Source: an uncultured Acidobacteriota bacterium
Lineage (GTDB): Bacteria > Acidobacteriota > Terriglobia > UBA7540
NCBI GenBank assembly: GCA_963804995.1
Contig: CAWDSK010000001.1
Span: 416,001 to 480,000 of the forward strand
Length of the DNA stretch: 64,000 nt
Direction of reading: 5' to 3'
Part shown: positions 52,943 through 64,000 of the stretch, one piece after another
Numbering within the stretch: position 1 is the stretch's first letter
Layout: the number at the start of each line of letters is the position of its first letter
Program-made: the position numbers and the translations under genes
The notes under the pieces: model-generated
Databases searched by the model: none
Told to the model about the DNA's origin: nothing
Seen by the model: the letters and a program-made list of their open reading frames with translations, nothing else

Positions 52943-53348
52943 ATGCCCCAATCCCTTGAACGTCCTGGAGAACCAACGGGCGGAGTTGATCCGCCAGATC
53001 GCCCAACTGGGTGACCTCCGCAGTGGTTCGATCACCAGCATTACCGCCCGCTGCGGCAAGTCCAACTGTCACTGTCATCAGCCCCATCATCCCGGCCACG
53101 GCCCTAACTTCCGGCTCACTTACAAGGTGCAGGGCCGGACCGTCAGCGAAACCTTCCCCAGCCCTGCCGCCCGGCACCAGGCGGAACGACAGATTGCCGA
53201 GTTCCGCAGGTTTCAACAACTGCGCCGGGCCTTCGTGGAGGTGAACGAAAAAATCTGCCGTCAGCGCCCCCTCCCCCAGGAGGCCGAAGCGGCGGAGCAG
53301 GAAAAAAAACGGCGGAAGCCATTCAGCGGGAAGTGGCGCGAGAAGTAG
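52943..53348 (+). pseudogene. IS accessory protein (DUF6788-like), frameshifted near its start
   Basis: LRSGSI..CGK.NCHC..GHGP; the RBS-led ATG at 52943 is out of frame with the body by one extra C. Confidence 0.75.
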
Positions 53349-54661
53349 AGTCCCTGCTGGCGGTGATCTTTGCTGGGCGGCGCAAGTCCGGGACGCTGGA
53401 TTTGGAAGCCGTTGAGATGGCCACACGCGCGGCCATGCACCGGGCGGGGGCGGCGGTGCTGGAGGAGTTGCTGGCCGCCCCGGACGAGTGCCCTCGCCAA
53501 GTTCCCTGCGGCTGTGGTCGGGGGGCCCCCTACCGTGGCAGGCGTCGGAAGCAACTGCTGACCGTGCTGGGGCGGGTTGAGACCGAGCGTCCCTATTACG
53601 TTTGTCCGGCCTGTCACCGGGGACAGAGTCCCCGCGATCAGGAACTGGATGTGGAGGGCACGGAATATTCTCCTGGGGTGCGACGGATGATGGCGGTGGT
53701 GGGCAGCGAAACCTCCTTTGCGCTCGGTTGAGAACAACTGCAACTGCTGGCCGGGTTGGAGGTGACCACCAAGGCCGTGGAACGGCAGGCAGAGGCTCTG
53801 GGCGCCGAGATTGCCGCCCAGGAACAAGCCTCGATCCAGCAAGGCCTGCAACGGAACTTGCCGCAGGTGAGGGGACCGGAAATTCCGGTACTCTATGTGG
53901 AGATGGATGGGACGGGAGTACCGGTGGTGAGTTCGGAAACCGAGGGTCGAGCGGGGAAACAGAGCGAGCAAGCGCGCCCGCGGGAAGTGAAATTAGGTTG
54001 TGTCTTCGCCCAGACGACACGGGATGCCCGGGGCCGACCGGCGCGCGAAGAAGGCTCCACCACCTACACGGGAGGCATCGAAACGGCCGAGGTTTTTGGG
54101 CGACGCATCTACCTCGAAGCATATCGTCGGGGCTGGAACCGGGCCCAAAAGAAAGTGGTGATCGGCGATGGTGCTCCTTGGATTTGGAACCTCACCGCCG
54201 AGCACTTTCCGGGAGCCATTCAGATTGTGGATCTTTATCATGCCCGACAGCACTTATGGGAGCTGTCGGGCCAGCTCTGGCCCACCGACGAGCGCCACCG
54301 CCGAAGGTGGACCAGAAAACGGGAGGAGAAGTTGGAGAGCGGGCGGATCGAATCCCTAGTGCGCGATTTGCGCTCGCTGTTCCCAGCCACGCCCGAAGCC
54401 GCCGAACTCTTGCGCCACGCGGCAGATTATTTTACCGTCAACGCCCAACGGATGCGCTATCCGACCTTTCGGCGTCAGCATCTGTTCGTAGGTTCCGGGG
54501 TTGTCGAAGCCGGCTGCAAAACCCTCATCGGCACTCGGCTGAAGCGCTCCGGTATGTTCTGGAGGGTCCGCGGGGCCAATGCCATCATCGCCCTTCGCTG
54601 CCATCGCTTGAGCGGCAAATTCGAGGATTACTGGGAGAACCGTCGCCCCCGCGCGGCCTGA
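53333..54661 (+). pseudogene. ISKra4/UPF0236-type transposase with an internal TGA
   Basis: CGCG, YYVCPAC, YVEMDGTGVP, GDGAPWIW, DLYHA, GSGVVEAGCK, RLKRSGMFW; in-frame TGA at 53729-53731. Confidence 0.85.
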
Positions 54662-55352: not shown

Positions 55353-57440
55353 ATGCCGAGAATCAGAGGTCAGCGGCTCATGAAGTACGTGGACCAAGGT
55401 GTATGCTCGACCGCCACCGTCCTATACGATACCATTCAGTTCTTCAATAAATACCGCCCCGGTCCGACCTTCATTCCCAGGTGGTCTGACAAGCCACTGC
55501 TGAAATCCTGGCAGAAGACCAAGCCGCAGCTGGGCTGGCCCCGCCAGACCGACTCGCTGTGCCCGGAGTGTGTGAAGGAGGCGCGCGAGCGGATTCTGAA
55601 CGGAGACCAGAACTGGCAAACTCTGCTCTCTGAAAAGGTGGGCGAGATCAAGGCCAACATTGTTGAGCGTGACGGCCAGATCTGGATGGTAAAGGATTGC
55701 CCCATCCACGGCCACTTCGAAGACATGATGGCCGTCGATTCCCACTTCCTCGAATGGATTGAGAAGAACTTTCCCGGCCGCGACATTCGCGCCCACAACG
55801 ATGAGGGCCTGCACAATCACGGCTTCAGCTCGATCAAGCACGGCCGCGGCTCCGTGCTGACCGTGGACCTCACCAACCGCTGCAACATGATGTGCGACCC
55901 CTGCTTTATGGACGCCAACCAGGTGGGCTTTGTCCACGAATTGACCTGGGAAGACGTGAAGGAAATTCTCGACAACGCCATCACCATCAAGCCGCGGCGC
56001 CAGATGTCGGTGCAGTTCTCCGGTGGCGAGCCCACCATGTCGCCGTACTTCATCGACGCCATCCGCTACGCGCGCAAGCTGGGTTACAACAGCGTGCAGG
56101 CTGCGACCAATGGCATCGAGTTTGCCAAGAGCAAGGAATTCTGCCGACGCGCTTTTGAAGCGGGCCTGCGTTATGCCTACCTGCAATTTGACGGGATCGG
56201 CAACGACGCCAACAACCACCGCCAGGTGGGCAACCTGTTCGACGTCAAGTTGCGCGCCATTGAGAACATGCACGAGGCCGGCATTGAGATCATCCTGGTA
56301 GTAACCATTGTCAACAATGTAAACAATGACCAGGTCGGTCCCATCGTCAACTTCGCCCGCAACAACCCCAAGAAAGTTGCCTTTGTAGCCTTCCAACCGG
56401 TTTCGTTCACCGGCCGGGATGAGGACATCACTCCGCAGCGCCGGCTGCGTCAGCGCTATACCCTGGCGCATCTTGCCAGCGACGTGAAGAAGCAGACCGG
56501 CATCACTGAGCCCACGCGCGATTGGTTCCCCATTTCGCTGATGGGCGCTTTCGCGGATTTTGCCGACCTGGTGCACGGGCCGGAGGCGCAGTGGGGCCAG
56601 GTAAGCTGCGGCTGCCATCCGAACTGCGGCGTGGGCACCGCCCTGATGATCAACAAGGAAACCAAGGAATGGGCGCCCGTCCCGCAATTTCTTGACATCC
56701 CCCAGCTCGTGAAGGATATGCAGGGCATCACGGACGCGGCGCGGGGCAAGACGTTTTCAAACCTCATGATGGGTCTGGCCCTGCTCAAGAACTACAAGCC
56801 GATGCGGGCTCCCAAGAGCCTGGCGCTGATCGACCTCCTGAAGAAATTCGACAAATCCTTCGCGCTCACCGGCGAGGCGCGCGCCCGCAAGAAGTATGGC
56901 GCCTCGGACCCCAACCGCACGCTGGAAGACGCCATGAAGCGCCGTTCCGATCCCTGGAACTTCCTCTTCATCGCCGGCATGTGGTTCCAGGACCTTTTCA
57001 ACTATGACTTCCGCCGCACCGAGATGTGCATCATTCCTTACGCCACGCAGCAGGGTGAAATCTCCTTCTGCGCTTACAACACCGGCATCGGCTGGCGGAA
57101 GATTCTGGAAAATATGTACAAGAACGCGTCGGTCGCCGAGTGGTACAAGACCCACGGCAAGCACGAAATCTACGCGAAAGGCAAGGAAGTGAAGCTGGAT
57201 ACGACCCAGCATTCCCTTTACGTGAATGCCGAGGACGCGGCGCGCGTTCGCAGCCTTGACCACGATGTTCCTCATACCGCGGCGGAAGAAGATAAAGCCC
57301 GCCGCAAGGCCGCGTGGGAAGCCCAACAGGCCGCGCAAGCCCGGCAGGTCTATGAGGAAATGGTTCTCAAGAAGCCCAAAGCGGAGCTGGTGCAGATCGG
57401 CGCCACAGCCAAACCCGAGGAAGAAAAAATTACTGTCTAG
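55353..57440 (+). CDS. Radical SAM protein, tetraether lipid synthase (Tes)-like
   Basis: TDSLCPEC and KDCPIHG N-terminal metal site, DLTNRCNMMCDPCF, FSGGEPT, YLQFDG, CHPNCG, GMWFQD.FNYD..R...C.I, FCAYN. Confidence 0.85.
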   Translation: MPRIRGQRLMKYVDQGVCSTATVLYDTIQFFNKYRPGPTFIPRWSDKPLLKSWQKTKPQLGWPRQTDSLCPECVKEARERILNGDQNWQTLLSEKVGEIKANIVERDGQIWMVKDCPIHGHFEDMMAVDSHFLEWIEKNFPGRDIRAHNDEGLHNHGFSSIKHGRGSVLTVDLTNRCNMMCDPCFMDANQVGFVHELTWEDVKEILDNAITIKPRRQMSVQFSGGEPTMSPYFIDAIRYARKLGYNSVQAATNGIEFAKSKEFCRRAFEAGLRYAYLQFDGIGNDANNHRQVGNLFDVKLRAIENMHEAGIEIILVVTIVNNVNNDQVGPIVNFARNNPKKVAFVAFQPVSFTGRDEDITPQRRLRQRYTLAHLASDVKKQTGITEPTRDWFPISLMGAFADFADLVHGPEAQWGQVSCGCHPNCGVGTALMINKETKEWAPVPQFLDIPQLVKDMQGITDAARGKTFSNLMMGLALLKNYKPMRAPKSLALIDLLKKFDKSFALTGEARARKKYGASDPNRTLEDAMKRRSDPWNFLFIAGMWFQDLFNYDFRRTEMCIIPYATQQGEISFCAYNTGIGWRKILENMYKNASVAEWYKTHGKHEIYAKGKEVKLDTTQHSLYVNAEDAARVRSLDHDVPHTAAEEDKARRKAAWEAQQAAQARQVYEEMVLKKPKAELVQIGATAKPEEEKITV

Positions 57441-59244: not shown

Positions 59245-60596
59245 ATGACGGCTACACCTCGAATTCGATTTGCTGAACCACCACCGGCGAAGTGCGTGCT
59301 CGGCCTGGGCGTGATTGGCCTGGGCACGGTCGGAACCGGGACCTTGAAGGTTTTGCCTCGAGCATCGCCGCGAAATCCAGCGACGGGTGGGATGCGAACT
59401 GCAACTCAAGGTCATTTGCTCGCGCACGGTGCACAAGCGCGATCTTTCCTGGCTGGGCACATCCGTGAAGCTGACCTCCGACTGGAAGCAGGTGGTCCGC
59501 GACCCGGAAGTCGATATCGTGGTCGAGTTGGTCGGGGTTCTCTCGACGGCCCGTGCCATCGCCTTTGCCGTGCTCAACGCGGGCAAGCACTTGATCACCG
59601 CCAACAAGCAACTGGTAGCCGAACACGGGGTGGAGCTGGTGGAGCGCAGCCGCGCCCATCACGTCGGACTGGGCATCGAGGCTTGTGTGGCCGGTGGCAC
59701 ACCCGTGCTGCACGCTGTCCGCGAGGGACTGGCGGGCGAAAACTTTAATGCCGTGTACGGCATCCTGAACGGCACCACCAACTACATCTTGACGGAGATG
59801 GAGCGCCGGGGTTGTTCGTTCGCGGAAGCGCTTGCCGAGGCTCAGGAGAAAGGCTACGCCGAACCTGATCCCACCTTCGATGTGGAAGGCTTTGATGCGC
59901 GTTACAAGATTGCCATCCTGGCGATGATGTGCTTTGGCCAGGCCGTGCGTGTGCGCGACATTCCCGTGGAAGGCATCACGCGGATCGAGCAGGTGGATTT
60001 TACCTACGCGCGGCGGCTGGATCATACCTTGCGTCTGGTGGCTGGGGCGCGGCGCCGCACGAGCGACCGCCTGGAAATCTTTGTTCGCCCCATGATCATC
60101 CCTGCGGCTTCGCGCCTGGCCAGCGTGCGAGGGGCAACCAACAGCGTGTTGCTGGTGGGCAACAAGGGCGGCAACACCAGCATCACTGGGAGGGGCGCGG
60201 GCGGTGAGCCCACGGGCGTCGCCGTGCTCTCCGACGTGGTTCAGGTGGCGCGCTCCATCGCAGCAGGTGGCTCAGGCTCGAACGCCGTTCGGGTACGAGA
60301 GTTGGCACCCTTCCAGGATTGCGCCGCCGGATGAAAACGTGGTCGCCACCTACCTTCGACTGGTGGTCCGCGACCGGCCCGGCATCCTGGGGCGCGTGTG
60401 CACCATCCTGGGAAAGCACCGCATCAATATCGACTCGGTTATGCAGGAGCCGGGCTGCACCAAGGGCCACTTGCCGTTCGTCATGACGCTTGAGGCCACT
60501 CAGGAGAAGCACGTGGCGCGCGCCGTCCGGGAGATTTCCCGCCTGTCCTTCCTGGCACAACCTCCGTTCCTCCTCCCCTTTGCCGAGTTGCCGTGA
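59245..60596 (+). pseudogene. hom: Homoserine dehydrogenase with ACT domain; two frameshifts (real or sequencing errors)
   Basis: GLGTVG, ITANK, GILNGTTNYIL, GYAEPDP..DVEG.D, GRGAG..PT, DRPGIL ACT; frame changes at about 59356 and 60270. Confidence 0.9.
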
Positions 60597-60701
60597 CTAT
60601 ACAGGGCGCCATAAATTGTAGCGGCGGTCTATGACCGCCGGTCGGCGCTCATAGAGCGCCGCTACAGCCGAATGCGCAAACACTTATGGCGCTGTGTATA
60701 G
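60597..60701. repeat. Nested palindromic REP/REPIN-like element
   Basis: Outer ctatacagggcgccataa / ttatggcgctgtgtatag; inner tgtagcggcg...cgccgctaca containing two hairpins. Confidence 0.85.
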
Positions 60702-60816
60702 CTTCGCACCAGAACATCGCTTCCGCCACCGCGCTTGACTTCGCATCCGAACGCCTCTAGAGTTGCTCCGAATTTGTCACACCCTGCAATTTCGGTGTCA
60801 GGAGGTAAGTGCGCCT

Positions 60817-61116
60817 ATGATTCCAGTCTTTCACGCCGTACTTGCTGCCATTTTGGGTTCGGGAGGGAGCGCCGCGCCGGCGCATCAATCACGAATCCCC
60901 GTCATAACCTACGGTGCCAATGCCCTTGTGCAGGCGAGCGGCGCCGTGAAGGAATCATCCAACAAGAACCTTAAGGTCACCCACAAGGAAGATTTGAAGA
61001 CGAACAGCAAGGTAATCAAAAACACTGACAAGACCATCAAGAACGAGGGCAAGTTTAATAAAACAGTGAAGGAAGACAAGGTCACTCCTGCGTATAAGGA
61101 AAGCACCATTAAGTAA
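60817..61116 (+). CDS. Small protein with hydrophobic leader and Lys-periodic C-terminal half (candidate precursor peptide)
   Basis: GGAGGT RBS; 99 aa; 15 Lys in the last 56 aa, mostly spaced 3-4 apart. Confidence 0.75.
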   Translation: MIPVFHAVLAAILGSGGSAAPAHQSRIPVITYGANALVQASGAVKESSNKNLKVTHKEDLKTNSKVIKNTDKTIKNEGKFNKTVKEDKVTPAYKESTIK

Positions 61117-61167
61117 GACCTCGGCGGCCATTCGGGGTCTCCCGGATGGCCGCCCCCTCTTCCTGAG

Positions 61168-62268
61168 ATGATCATGGATGTACCTTCCTCACTTCCCCCT
61201 CTTTACGCACATTGGATGAACGACCTCCTGCCCGGGCCTCTGCCCGCGGAAACCAAAGCTACCTGTCAGACTTGCCCCATGCTGGGACGCGAGGAGCGTC
61301 CGGGACCGGGTGTGGTCTTCTTCCATAACAAGATCAAGTGCTGTGCTTACCTCCCGCGGCTTTACAACTTTCTGGTGGGCCGCATTCTGGCGGATGAGGA
61401 TCCCGCTGCCGCGGCGGGCCGCGCCACAGTGGAAGCGCGCCTTAAGGCCGGTGTCGCCGTGACGCCGCTCGGACTTGAGCAGACTCGCACCTTCGTGCTT
61501 CTCTATGAGAACAGCTCCGCCGCGTTCGGCCGCAACCGGGCGTTGAAGTGCCCGCATTACCTGGAGGAGACGGGCGGCTGCGGTGTCTGGCGGCACCGCG
61601 AATCCACCTGCGCCACCTGGTTCTGCAAGCATGAGCGCGGTGCGGCCAGCCAGGCTCTCTGGCGAGAGTTCGTGCACCGGCTGCTCGGTAACGTGGAGCA
61701 CGAGCTCGCCCGCTGGTGCCTGCTCAAGCTGGACGTGGAGGATGAGGTTCTGCGTTCGCTTCTCGCGCCCTCCCTGGGAAGCGGCGGGGGGCCGATTCAC
61801 GGCGAGGAACTCAACGGCAAGATTGATTCCGCTGAGTATCAAAAGAACTGGGGTAAGTGGCGGGGGCGTGAAGGTGAGTTCTACCGCGCCTGTGGCCGGT
61901 TGGTTTCCGCTCTCGAGTGGCAGGAAGTTCTGGACATTTGCGGGCCGGAGACGAAGCTTCTTGCCGCTCTAACTCGCCAGGCATACCAACGATTCATTTC
62001 CGAAGAAAAACCACCGCGCTTGCAGGCGGGTTCGCTACAACTGGTTCGCATCGGGCATGAGACCACGCGGCTCTCCACCTACAGCGAGTTCGATCCGCTC
62101 AACATTCCCAATCCCGTGCTGAAAGTGCTGCATTACTTTGATGGGCGCCCCACGGCTGATGTCGTCGCAGAAATTACCACCAAAGAAAACATCGGCCTGG
62201 AACCCGCCCTGATCCGCAAGCTGTCGGACTTTCGTATCCTTGTTCCCCCGCCGGATGACGCGAAGTGA
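61168..62268 (+). CDS. YkgJ/FliB-like cysteine-cluster protein with C-terminal PqqD/RRE-like domain
   Basis: CQTC..KCC, CPHY..GGCGVWRHRESTCATWFC; tail VLHYFDGRPTADV..LIRKL.DFRILV. Confidence 0.65.
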   Translation: MIMDVPSSLPPLYAHWMNDLLPGPLPAETKATCQTCPMLGREERPGPGVVFFHNKIKCCAYLPRLYNFLVGRILADEDPAAAAGRATVEARLKAGVAVTPLGLEQTRTFVLLYENSSAAFGRNRALKCPHYLEETGGCGVWRHRESTCATWFCKHERGAASQALWREFVHRLLGNVEHELARWCLLKLDVEDEVLRSLLAPSLGSGGGPIHGEELNGKIDSAEYQKNWGKWRGREGEFYRACGRLVSALEWQEVLDICGPETKLLAALTRQAYQRFISEEKPPRLQAGSLQLVRIGHETTRLSTYSEFDPLNIPNPVLKVLHYFDGRPTADVVAEITTKENIGLEPALIRKLSDFRILVPPPDDAK

Positions 62269-62269
62269 A

Positions 62270-62445
62270 TCAGAGCATATGACGCATGTGCAGGAAGAGG
62301 GCGACGCCACCCACGATAAGCCCCACACCGATGATGACCATCAGGACCGCCTTTAGGCGCAGGCTACTCTCGATCTGTTTTTCGGTCTTGGTGGTGATCA
62401 GGTAGGTCTTCTCATTCTCGCCCTTCTTGATGAGGTTGTATTCCT
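62270..62445 (-). pseudogene. C-terminal membrane-anchor fragment, GIDE-domain-protein-like
   Basis: IKKGENEKTYLITTKTEKQI followed by a TM; no credible start. Confidence 0.45.
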
Positions 62446-62459
62446 CGCGCCCCTGTGGC

Positions 62460-64000
62460 CTACTTCCTTCCCAGCAAGCGAATGCGTCCGGTGATGGCGC
62501 GGCCCTGGACACCCGTGAAGGTGAGGAAATTTGGCGAGTCGACGTTGGAATTCACGAAGGAAGCATTGGCGCGGTTGGTGATGTCGTCCATGCCACCACG
62601 CAGCGCCCACTGAAGTCCCAAAATGGTGAAGCGCCGTTCCAGGCTAAGGTCGAGCGAGAAATAAGGGGGGAAGCGCCGCGAGCCCGGAGCCCCCACCACC
62701 TGTTGGGAATCATTCTGTAAAGTGAAGGGAAAACCGTCGTGCCAGTCAAGTGTATAAGCCAGGTCGACTTTGTGGGTAAGTGGGAGCCACGCCCAGGAAA
62801 GGAAGCGATCAGGCGTGTCCCAGGCCAGCGGCCCGCCGGCCTGGGGGCTGAAGAGCACGGTGTCGATGTTGTAGCCGAAGACAGCATCGGAATGCGCGCG
62901 CGAGCGCGTGTAGGAGGCGAACACCACGTGATTCGGCTTAAAGACGTGCCGGAGGGTCAGTTCCGCGGCGTCGTAACGATCGTGGCGGTCGTTGGTCAGG
63001 ATGAAATCTCCCGTGAACGGCCCCGTGGGTGAAGTGGAAGCGCCGGGGTTGATAAAGGTCCAGATATCGCGTCCGCGCTTTTCCAGAAATTGCAGGTGCA
63101 AATAGGTGGACTGCGGCAGCTTCTGGTCGATCGCCACGCTCCAGTTCGTCACGTGCGGAAATCGCAGCGCGCGCTCGTTGATCGTAAAGGTGCTGACCAC
63201 CGGCGGCTGGATCAGGTTAAGACCCGTCGCGTCATAAAAGGAATCCGTGCGCGTGCCGGTAAGTGAACGCGTGAGGATGTCAAGATTACTCGGGTCGCGA
63301 TAGATACCGACTCCCCAGGAGATTTTAGTGTTGCCATTGCGCTTCACCAGGTACGTGGACGCGAGGCGCGGCGAAGGGGCCAAGCCATGGATCACATCGT
63401 CCCAATCCAGGCGCAGGCCGGGTTCCAGCAGCCAGCGGCCGGTCACCGACCAGCGGTCCTGCGCGTAGGCGCTCGCTTCCACCAGGTCGCGGGTAAAAGG
63501 CGCGGCGTTGGTGAAATCGACGCGGCGTGAAAGCGTGCCGTCGTTGCGCTCCACCAGGTAAGGTCGCCGGTTGAATTCCTGGTGGTCATTGACCCGGTCG
63601 GTATCAAGGCCCACCTTGACCTCGTGCTTGCCAGCCCATTTGAAGGGGGGCAGAAACAGGTTGCCGATCTCCTCGATACGCTCGGCGTAGCCGTGGTTAG
63701 CCTCGTAGTAGTTGCCGCTGGTTCCGTTCGGAGTGATGAGGTAGGTCTGAGGACCCAAGGGGGAGGAATCGTTGTTGAAGCGGCTGGCCGCAAAACCCAG
63801 TTCCCCGAGCGCCCCGTTGTGAAAAAGGTGCTGGTCCCTGACTGTAAACATGAAACTGTCCGTGGTCACGTTCTGGGTGGTGGAGACGGGGTCGAGCGGG
63901 TCCAAGCCGGTATGGGGGGAGCGAAAGAAGTTCGCGAGAAAACTGGTCGTCAAGTTGTTGCGCGGCTCGAGGTTAATCTGCACTTTGGAAAGGTTGCTGA
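62460..64000 (-). CDS. TonB-dependent receptor (start lies beyond the window)
   Basis: YAQDRW, GLRLDWD, SPRL, SYTRS, terminal beta-strand GRIRLLGRK. Confidence 0.85.
   Translation of the reverse strand, partial: SNLSKVQINLEPRNNLTTSFLANFFRSPHTGLDPLDPVSTTQNVTTDSFMFTVRDQHLFHNGALGELGFAASRFNNDSSPLGPQTYLITPNGTSGNYYEANHGYAERIEEIGNLFLPPFKWAGKHEVKVGLDTDRVNDHQEFNRRPYLVERNDGTLSRRVDFTNAAPFTRDLVEASAYAQDRWSVTGRWLLEPGLRLDWDDVIHGLAPSPRLASTYLVKRNGNTKISWGVGIYRDPSNLDILTRSLTGTRTDSFYDATGLNLIQPPVVSTFTINERALRFPHVTNWSVAIDQKLPQSTYLHLQFLEKRGRDIWTFINPGASTSPTGPFTGDFILTNDRHDRYDAAELTLRHVFKPNHVVFASYTRSRAHSDAVFGYNIDTVLFSPQAGGPLAWDTPDRFLSWAWLPLTHKVDLAYTLDWHDGFPFTLQNDSQQVVGAPGSRRFPPYFSLDLSLERRFTILGLQWALRGGMDDITNRANASFVNSNVDSPNFLTFTGVQGRAITGRIRLLGRK

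Follow-up and report, generated by a model that had tools for sequence, protein, structure and literature searches.

Two adjacent genes on the plus strand lie near the end of the window (the whole 64,000-nucleotide stretch of DNA analysed here, from the genome of an uncultured Acidobacteriota bacterium, G000): P0001, which codes for a Lys-rich peptide, and P0002, which codes for a putative enzyme with eight cysteines and a predicted C-terminal RRE (Table 1). The original prediction, made from the DNA letters, had described a 99-aa frame behind a strong ribosome-binding site and a core of 15 Lys placed mostly every 3–4 residues, and both were recovered: the frame runs from 60817 to 61116 (+) with AGGAGGT at 60800–60806, and the 56-aa core holds 15 Lys, 11 of the 14 Lys–Lys gaps being 3–4 residues long (shuffle p=1e-4, for a statistic picked post hoc). 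Genome-wide, only 4 of 23,506 short ATG-started frames reach a density of at least 13 Lys in 56 aa. A TTG at 60763 was considered as an alternative start for the peptide and discarded, because the homologues and the ribosome-binding site both favour 60817. Neither Pfam nor NCBIfam gave a match to P0001 that reached a curated cut-off, and Atlas gave no usable match to the peptide. In RNA run X1 a single 240-nt contig spans 60784–61023 with 1 mismatch, and the enzyme gene is matched by no contig; we do not take this contig as evidence of expression, because contigs cannot rank genes and DNA was possibly present.

Table 1. Features of the peptide–enzyme locus (positions in the window).
Feature	Position	Strand	Basis
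Precursor gene P0001, 99 aa, type-A family: signal-like N-terminus, conserved leader motif, Lys-periodic core	60817–61116	+	ORF call, profile search
Strong Shine-Dalgarno sequence AGGAGGT, 10 nt 5' of the peptide start	60800–60806	+	Sequence
Sigma-70-like promoter candidate, 9/12 matches, weak, near chance level	60735–60763	+	1 found vs 0.6 expected in shuffles
Putative hydrophobic Sec-signal-like segment, residues ~1–22 of P0001	60817–60882	+	
Leader motif G-A-x-A-[LI]-[VA]-Q-x-x-G-[GA], residues 33–43 of P0001; likely RRE-binding strand	60913–60945	+	
Hypervariable core of 56 aa with 15 Lys and a net charge of +7; Lys periodicity peak at 100 degrees (one helix face)	60946–61113	+	
GC hairpin of 14 bp without U-tract; likely stabiliser of the peptide mRNA or reducer of read-through toward the enzyme gene	61123–61154	+	Folding, locus comparison
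Enzyme gene P0002, 366 aa: 8-Cys YkgJ/CxxCxxCC-like domain fused to C-terminal RRE	61168–62268	+	ORF call, homologue alignment, model
Putative catalytic domain, residues 1–280, with C33, C36, C58, C59, C128, C138, C148, C153	61168–62007	+	Model, pLDDT 94
RRE-like domain, residues 281–363, predicted three strands and three helices	62008–62256	+	Model vs solved structures
Accessory cassette extent: one contig of a related organism joins 60586 to 62276	60587–62275	.	Run X3, single contig, flanks ~90% identical
REP-like nested inverted repeat at the left edge of the cassette, probably outside the system	60597–60701	.	45 blastn hits in genome

P0001 belongs to a family of 61 members from a profile search, none of them informatively named, which we refer to as type A. 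Its members share one order of parts: an N-terminal hydrophobic segment, found in all, then the motif G-A-x-A-[LI]-[VA]-Q-x-x-G-G, in which G42 is invariant and G33, A34 and Q39 are conserved in at least 90% (49 sequences), and then a core that varies freely. Within the subfamily of P0001 the median identity is 0.79 in the leader and 0.31 in the core (17 comparisons). Type-A cores contain 20.7% Lys and almost no Cys or Trp; many are also rich in His/Arg runs, and certain ones are scarcely more than a run of Lys (L007, L009, L011). In the subfamily of the window, Lys pairs 4, 7 or 11 residues apart are in excess (z 7.4, 3.5 and 4.3, in this order) and pairs 1–2 residues apart are depleted, a spacing that would therefore place the Lys on one face of a helix. 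Seven of the 61 members carry a twin-arginine signal instead, matched by Tat models below cut-off, and these signals together with the hydrophobic N-termini make export, which had been proposed as possible secretion, probable. Because the leader motif lies within the apparent signal peptide of the twin-arginine members, signal peptidase could act as leader protease, and we regard export with removal of the leader by signal peptidase as fairly likely. At L002, L003 and L005, type-A genes with His/Arg-rich cores often stand in 2–3 tandem copies 3' of a sensor kinase and NarL-type regulator pair.

The GC hairpin without a U-tract that had been placed at about 61124–61153 is present, with arms at 61123–61136 and 61141–61154 (−33.5 kcal/mol, z −3.8). 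It is kept in the three closest loci and in one more, with no two-sided compensatory change. Since only 4 of 21 loci reach z ≤ −2.6, an RNA element common to the whole family was rejected, so that of the proposed precursor–hairpin–enzyme layout the pairing of precursor and enzyme holds, while the hairpin does not extend beyond local loci. A ‘terminator’ at 61296–61313 was discarded, being inside the enzyme gene and at chance level.

P0002 indeed carries the predicted pattern CxxC..CC..CP...C......R..C...C in its 366 aa (C33, C36, C58, C59, C128 followed by Pro, C138, R144, C148 and C153). The eight Cys are near-invariant, being found in 145 of 149 aligned homologues, as are E28, K57, N67, R144, T150, R157, E177 and several Trp. 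The family (528 matches among 8000 candidates; 1130 clusters at 50% identity with E≤1e-30) is widespread, with members in uncultured Acidobacteriota, Gemmatimonadota, Myxococcota, Methylomirabilota and others, and phage and plasmid collections yielded no matches. With CxxC..CC, CP..C..R..C and a distal Cys, the family has the pattern of the 8-Cys superfamily; its second Cys motif aligns with a YkgJ-like set (hhalign 92.6%, E 4.6e-7, 31 columns), and the enzyme HMM matches 12 of 12 YkgJ-like sequences and DpdM, a set whose choice by Cys pattern favours matches. Atlas lists a YkgJ cluster for the enzyme at 0.82, which serves as a lead only. The match to PF03692 is weak, 15 bits against a gathering cut-off of 23 (E 0.041), and PF03692 is weakly matched by 23 of 43 family members, the best with E 0.0082. 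The FliB model NF038110 (cut-off 85 bits) has no match to P0002 at E≤1 and none in G000, and hhalign against FliB-like proteins is not significant (E 0.23; full-length E 0.29). The first motif reads CX2C-X21-CC in P0002, with a spacer of 17–35 in 147 homologues, and not CX4CX3CC as in FliB. Because the PF03692 match is weak and an NF038110 match is lacking, the proposed membership in the YkgJ/FliB group stands for the YkgJ-type superfamily and falls for the FliB family proper: judged from its sequence, P0002 represents a branch of the 8-Cys YkgJ-type group that has diverged and lies outside the FliB family.

Sequence searches of the PDB found nothing. When the catalytic-domain model was compared with the structures in pdb, pdb_via_wide (best Z 5.0) and viral libraries, no clear fold match emerged, which does not amount to a new fold, and no SAM-binding fold was recognised. 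A search for longer fused forms of the enzyme (717–2045 aa) found none, which is weak evidence.

The C-terminal part had been described as PqqD-like or RRE-like. Pfam PqqD does not match the C-terminus of P0002, and it is the RRE fold that is borne out, in a predicted model (pLDDT 80.7 at full length). The best structural matches of residues 281–363 are TigE (Z 7.7, rmsd 2.6, 80 aligned), MibB (7.5) and MccB (7.3), followed by PKMT2 (6.5), TbtB, MadB, PbtF, TbiB1 and PqqD; the RiPP RREs among them (TigE, MibB, MccB, PbtF, TbiB1, PqqD) span a moderate Z of 4.8–7.7, and the Foldseek rows agree with these matches and are not significant. One enzyme homologue (P0264) bears extra PqqD domains. We note that the RRE-like winged fold also occurs outside RiPP enzymes, as shown by PKMT2 and by YcfD among the Foldseek rows. 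Rickettsia PKMT2 (5doo) and M. tuberculosis Rv2067c (8hkr), whose C-terminal winged fold matches with Z 6.5 and 5.0, are both Lys methyltransferases; their catalytic domains are of the Rossmann type and unrelated to the 8-Cys domain. The predicted RRE would very probably bind the conserved leader motif of the peptide.

The two genes are strictly linked, as the proposed precursor–enzyme pairing demands. The enzyme and peptide profiles match the same 2 of 133 family genomes, always side by side, and among 401 sampled genomes of the phylum the enzyme occurs in 10 and the type-A peptide in 2 (G000 and G141), each time directly upstream of the enzyme; a third peptide-profile match in this sample is weak, spurious and antisense to another gene. 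Across 18 type-A loci the gap between peptide and enzyme is 30–166 nt, and in the genomes searched a type-A peptide was never found without an adjacent enzyme. The 1.5 kb around the homoserine dehydrogenase gene was free of the cassette in all 24 genus relatives. This patchy yet linked occurrence, together with the contig that joins 60586 to 62276, indicates that the pair behaves as an accessory cassette, in which we found no dedicated protease or exporter and no partner gene supplying an acyl or other donor.

We collected 146 distinct enzymes from genome and metagenome loci and counted the 94 with at least 1 kb on each side. Within 1.5 kb, 11 loci had a type-A precursor, 33 a precursor with a double-Gly leader (type B) and 5 a precursor with a peptidoglycan-binding domain (type C); the other 45 had no precursor by this automated test. 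By eye, several precursors were seen among these 45, and true orphan enzymes remain in Chloroflexota, Caulobacteraceae and multi-copy genomes. None of 300 random windows scored with the precursor profiles, a control that speaks to specificity only because the profiles were built partly from the same loci. Type-B loci contain peptide cleavage/export ABC transporters, HlyD, PpiC-like maturation proteins, and RiPP radical SAM or lanthipeptide enzymes; the neighbours of enzyme homologues include NHLP export genes as well as a methyltransferase of the RiPP radical SAM kind, and several of these neighbours score higher than the curated cut-offs. Type-C precursors join a peptidoglycan-binding domain (PF01471, above cut-off) to a Gly/Lys tail, and the domain may possibly be a folded ‘leader’ or mark a cell-wall-anchored substrate. 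On an enzyme tree (FastTree; precursor labels set by a regex that missed some, no order of events drawn) the precursor types cluster, with 37 changes against 63 when shuffled, which is a statement about clustering only, because kin share labels. The named nearest homologues on this tree make Acidobacteriota the probable phylum of G000.

What the three unrelated leader types have in common is Lys in the core. Lys is present in 61 of 61 type-A cores (5.7-fold enriched), in 141 of 144 type-B cores (11.3% Lys; 75 expected from background) and in 5 of 5 type-C tails; in types A and B it is the most enriched residue and the sole one found in at least 98% of the cores of both. In 17 double-Gly cores from enzyme-free genomes, a small control set, Lys makes up 5.7% and is present in 12. 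These enrichments are tempered by the small control, by the cationic character that many exported bacterial peptides have in any case, and by the non-independence of related cores. The suggestion that Lys is the target is thus favoured, and we consider Lys likely to be the modified residue.

Several features of these loci deserve mention in their own right. Type-B precursors form hypervariable libraries of up to ~12 per locus, whose cores resemble fragments of other proteins (library members include L061:9648-9968, L033:9676-9849, L039:6037-6285, L047:11953-12159, L039:10736-10954, L039:8157-8360 and L047:12462-12695). In Pfam, type-B cores match an N-terminal fragment of Hcp (26.7 bits) and a fragment of DUF1559 (24 bits), both above cut-off, and weakly a PATR repeat; further cores bear putative resemblances of this kind. 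At L032, L042, L056, L063, L076 and L107 the gene immediately 5' of the enzyme codes for a peptidoglycan-binding domain with a Gly-rich tail and scattered Lys. Possible substrates, in the form of larger proteins whose tandem repeats are centred on Lys, are encoded beside ‘orphan’ enzymes at L206:930-1400 (−) and L210:325-1275 (−), and four genomes of one family (G173, G189, G216 and G240; L206–L224) have 3–4 enzyme-profile matches each and no detectable short precursors.

Taken together, our results point to a genuine system of RRE-dependent peptide modification that had gone undescribed and whose enzyme class had not been seen linked to RiPPs. No paper or curated family describing such a peptide and enzyme was found in the open-access literature, Pfam or NCBIfam, and open-access searches found nothing linking YkgJ, FliB or PF03692 enzymes to RiPPs; these terms are absent from the main text and readable supplements of the RRE-Finder paper (PMC7470986) and of PMC12710340. 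Our best reading, to which we give about an even chance, makes P0002 an Fe-S lysine N-methyltransferase that is guided by its RRE and modifies an exported cationic peptide iteratively. Against it weigh the enzyme loci, about half, with no detectable precursor. The predicted RRE would grip the leader motif; by analogy with FliB, the enzyme would N-methylate many Lys of the core, probably with SAM and an iron-sulfur cluster; and the peptide would then leave the cytoplasm via its signal sequence, the strong ribosome-binding site and the hairpin likely keeping it more abundant than the enzyme. The product would be a cationic peptide of the cell envelope or secreted, with a stripe of methyl-lysine that would keep its charge while being more hydrophobic and more protease-resistant.

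The chemistry in this reading leans on two characterised relatives. FliB has eight conserved Cys and one [4Fe-4S] cluster, needs SAM and a reductant, and methylates most surface Lys with no sequence consensus (PMC8598068). DpdM of phage phiSM, described as a YkgJ homologue, has 8 Cys and is reported to methylate preQ1 at its primary amine in vivo (bioRxiv 10.1101/2023.04.13.536721). The amine-rich, consensus-free cores and the lack of a donor partner in the cassette make iterative Lys N-methylation the most economical proposal; two relatives do not fix the chemistry, because most YkgJ-type proteins are without known function, and if Lys is the target, methylation would be a reasonably probable modification. 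The foremost alternative keeps the pair and its Lys target and has the metal centre hydroxylate, oxidatively deaminate, cross-link or otherwise derivatise Lys, which we hold to be unlikely. The Cys spacing of P0002, unlike that of both FliB and DpdM, the conserved polar and aromatic residues particular to the family and the unrecognised SAM-binding fold all speak for it, and an i+4/i+7 spacing of Lys would suit helix cross-linking. Yet FliB and DpdM, the two characterised relatives found, are amine N-methyltransferases that also have no Rossmann or SET fold, the type-A cassette supplies no donor, and poly-Lys and single-Lys cores offer no conserved cross-link partner.

It seems improbable to us that the target lies outside the Lys side chain (in Thr/Ser, backbone amides or a terminus, for example) and that Lys richness reflects only a cationic product: in types A and B Lys exceeds every other residue in enrichment by a wide margin, and some type-A cores hold little beyond their Lys run. 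In favour of such a target, Thr and Ser are enriched 1.3–1.7-fold in each of the three core types, Lys is missing from 3 of 144 double-Gly cores and the control cores are not Lys-free. We give a similarly low chance to a substrate encoded elsewhere, such as flagellin or a Lys-rich surface protein, with the small frame as a co-inherited periplasmic cationic protein or adaptor. G000 has two flagellin-domain genes, many enzyme homologues are orphans and Lys-repeat proteins stand beside some enzymes (L206, L210), but in the genomes searched the type-A peptide always comes with an enzyme next to it, it combines a conserved leader with a variable core, and the enzyme has an RRE-like domain not seen in FliB-like matches. 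A non-catalytic role for P0002, in which it would bind Zn or Fe and serve a cationic, membrane-active peptide as chaperone or immunity factor, is very improbable, since the protein's eight invariant Cys and many invariant polar residues resemble an active site and it occurs among tailoring enzymes in RiPP clusters with unrelated cores, even though PF03692 is annotated only as zinc- or iron-chelating and the cores are cationic.

With FliB, P0002 shares the eight Cys, the second motif CP..C....C, the lack of a recognised Rossmann or SET fold, a proposed substrate with many Lys and action in the cytoplasm before export (proposed for P0002; shown or proposed for FliB). It differs from FliB in having no NF038110 match, in its first motif (CX2C-X~22-CC), in a different C-terminal half with the RRE, and in its proposed substrate, a small leader-bearing peptide and not flagellin. 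With DpdM it has in common the YkgJ-type eight Cys with an identical C-x9-C-x9-C spacing, although the similarity is marginal (HMM E 1.6e-4, one sequence; hhalign 4.9%) and the eighth Cys follows the seventh after 5 residues in P0002 and after 38 in DpdM. DpdM, of 217 aa and without an RRE, methylates a primary alkyl amine, and does so on a DNA base. The second Cys motif aligns with YkgJ/PF03692, whereas the score below cut-off, an insertion of ~20 residues in the first motif and the fused helical domain and RRE set P0002 apart. RRE-dependent maturases (TigE, MibB/NisB, MccB, TbiB1, PqqD) resemble it in the predicted RRE fold, the upstream position of the precursor, the conserved leader and the variable core; unlike theirs, its catalytic domain falls in no NCBIfam or Pfam RiPP enzyme class, its RRE is C-terminal, its type-A leader doubles as a Sec/Tat-like signal and its cassette has no dedicated protease or exporter.

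More tentatively, and with somewhat less than an even chance in our view, the whole family may consist of portable Fe-S lysine methyltransferases guided by an RRE, which would make it the first case of the FliB/DpdM type in the biosynthesis of ribosomal peptides. It would then have been recruited to three leader types unrelated to one another (embedded in a Sec/Tat signal, double-Gly with hypervariable core libraries, and peptidoglycan-binding domains), and its products at this locus would be exported poly-methyl-lysine peptides, a new class in which the leader also serves as export signal. To our knowledge the mechanism of FliB-type enzymes has only been proposed, and we found no solved structure of a FliB-type domain. 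If the reading is right, a 366-aa enzyme with its own small leader-tagged substrate would make the Fe-S methylation mechanism directly testable, and would provide a new enzyme class for RiPP biosynthesis and a leader-directed, sequence-tolerant tool for Lys methylation. Because no Pfam or NCBIfam model covers the family, profile-based mining would miss it.

Around the cassette, the homoserine dehydrogenase gene at 59245–60596 (+) is split over three frames, which points to a pseudogene or to assembly errors; the matching frame has 458–552 codons in 23 of 24 genus relatives. On the other side, 62270–62512 (−) is what is left of the 3' part of a GIDE-domain gene; in G020 (L085:8519-9502) this gene stands whole beside the cassette and encodes 327 aa, and G000 lacks its 5' part and the next gene before the TonB-type receptor gene. 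Further upstream in the window, 55353–57440 (+) encodes a 695-aa radical SAM protein related to the tetraether lipid synthase Tes (323.7 bits, below the cut-off of 450), and transposase-like frames at 52956–54661 (+) lie in pieces, presumably an insertion sequence.
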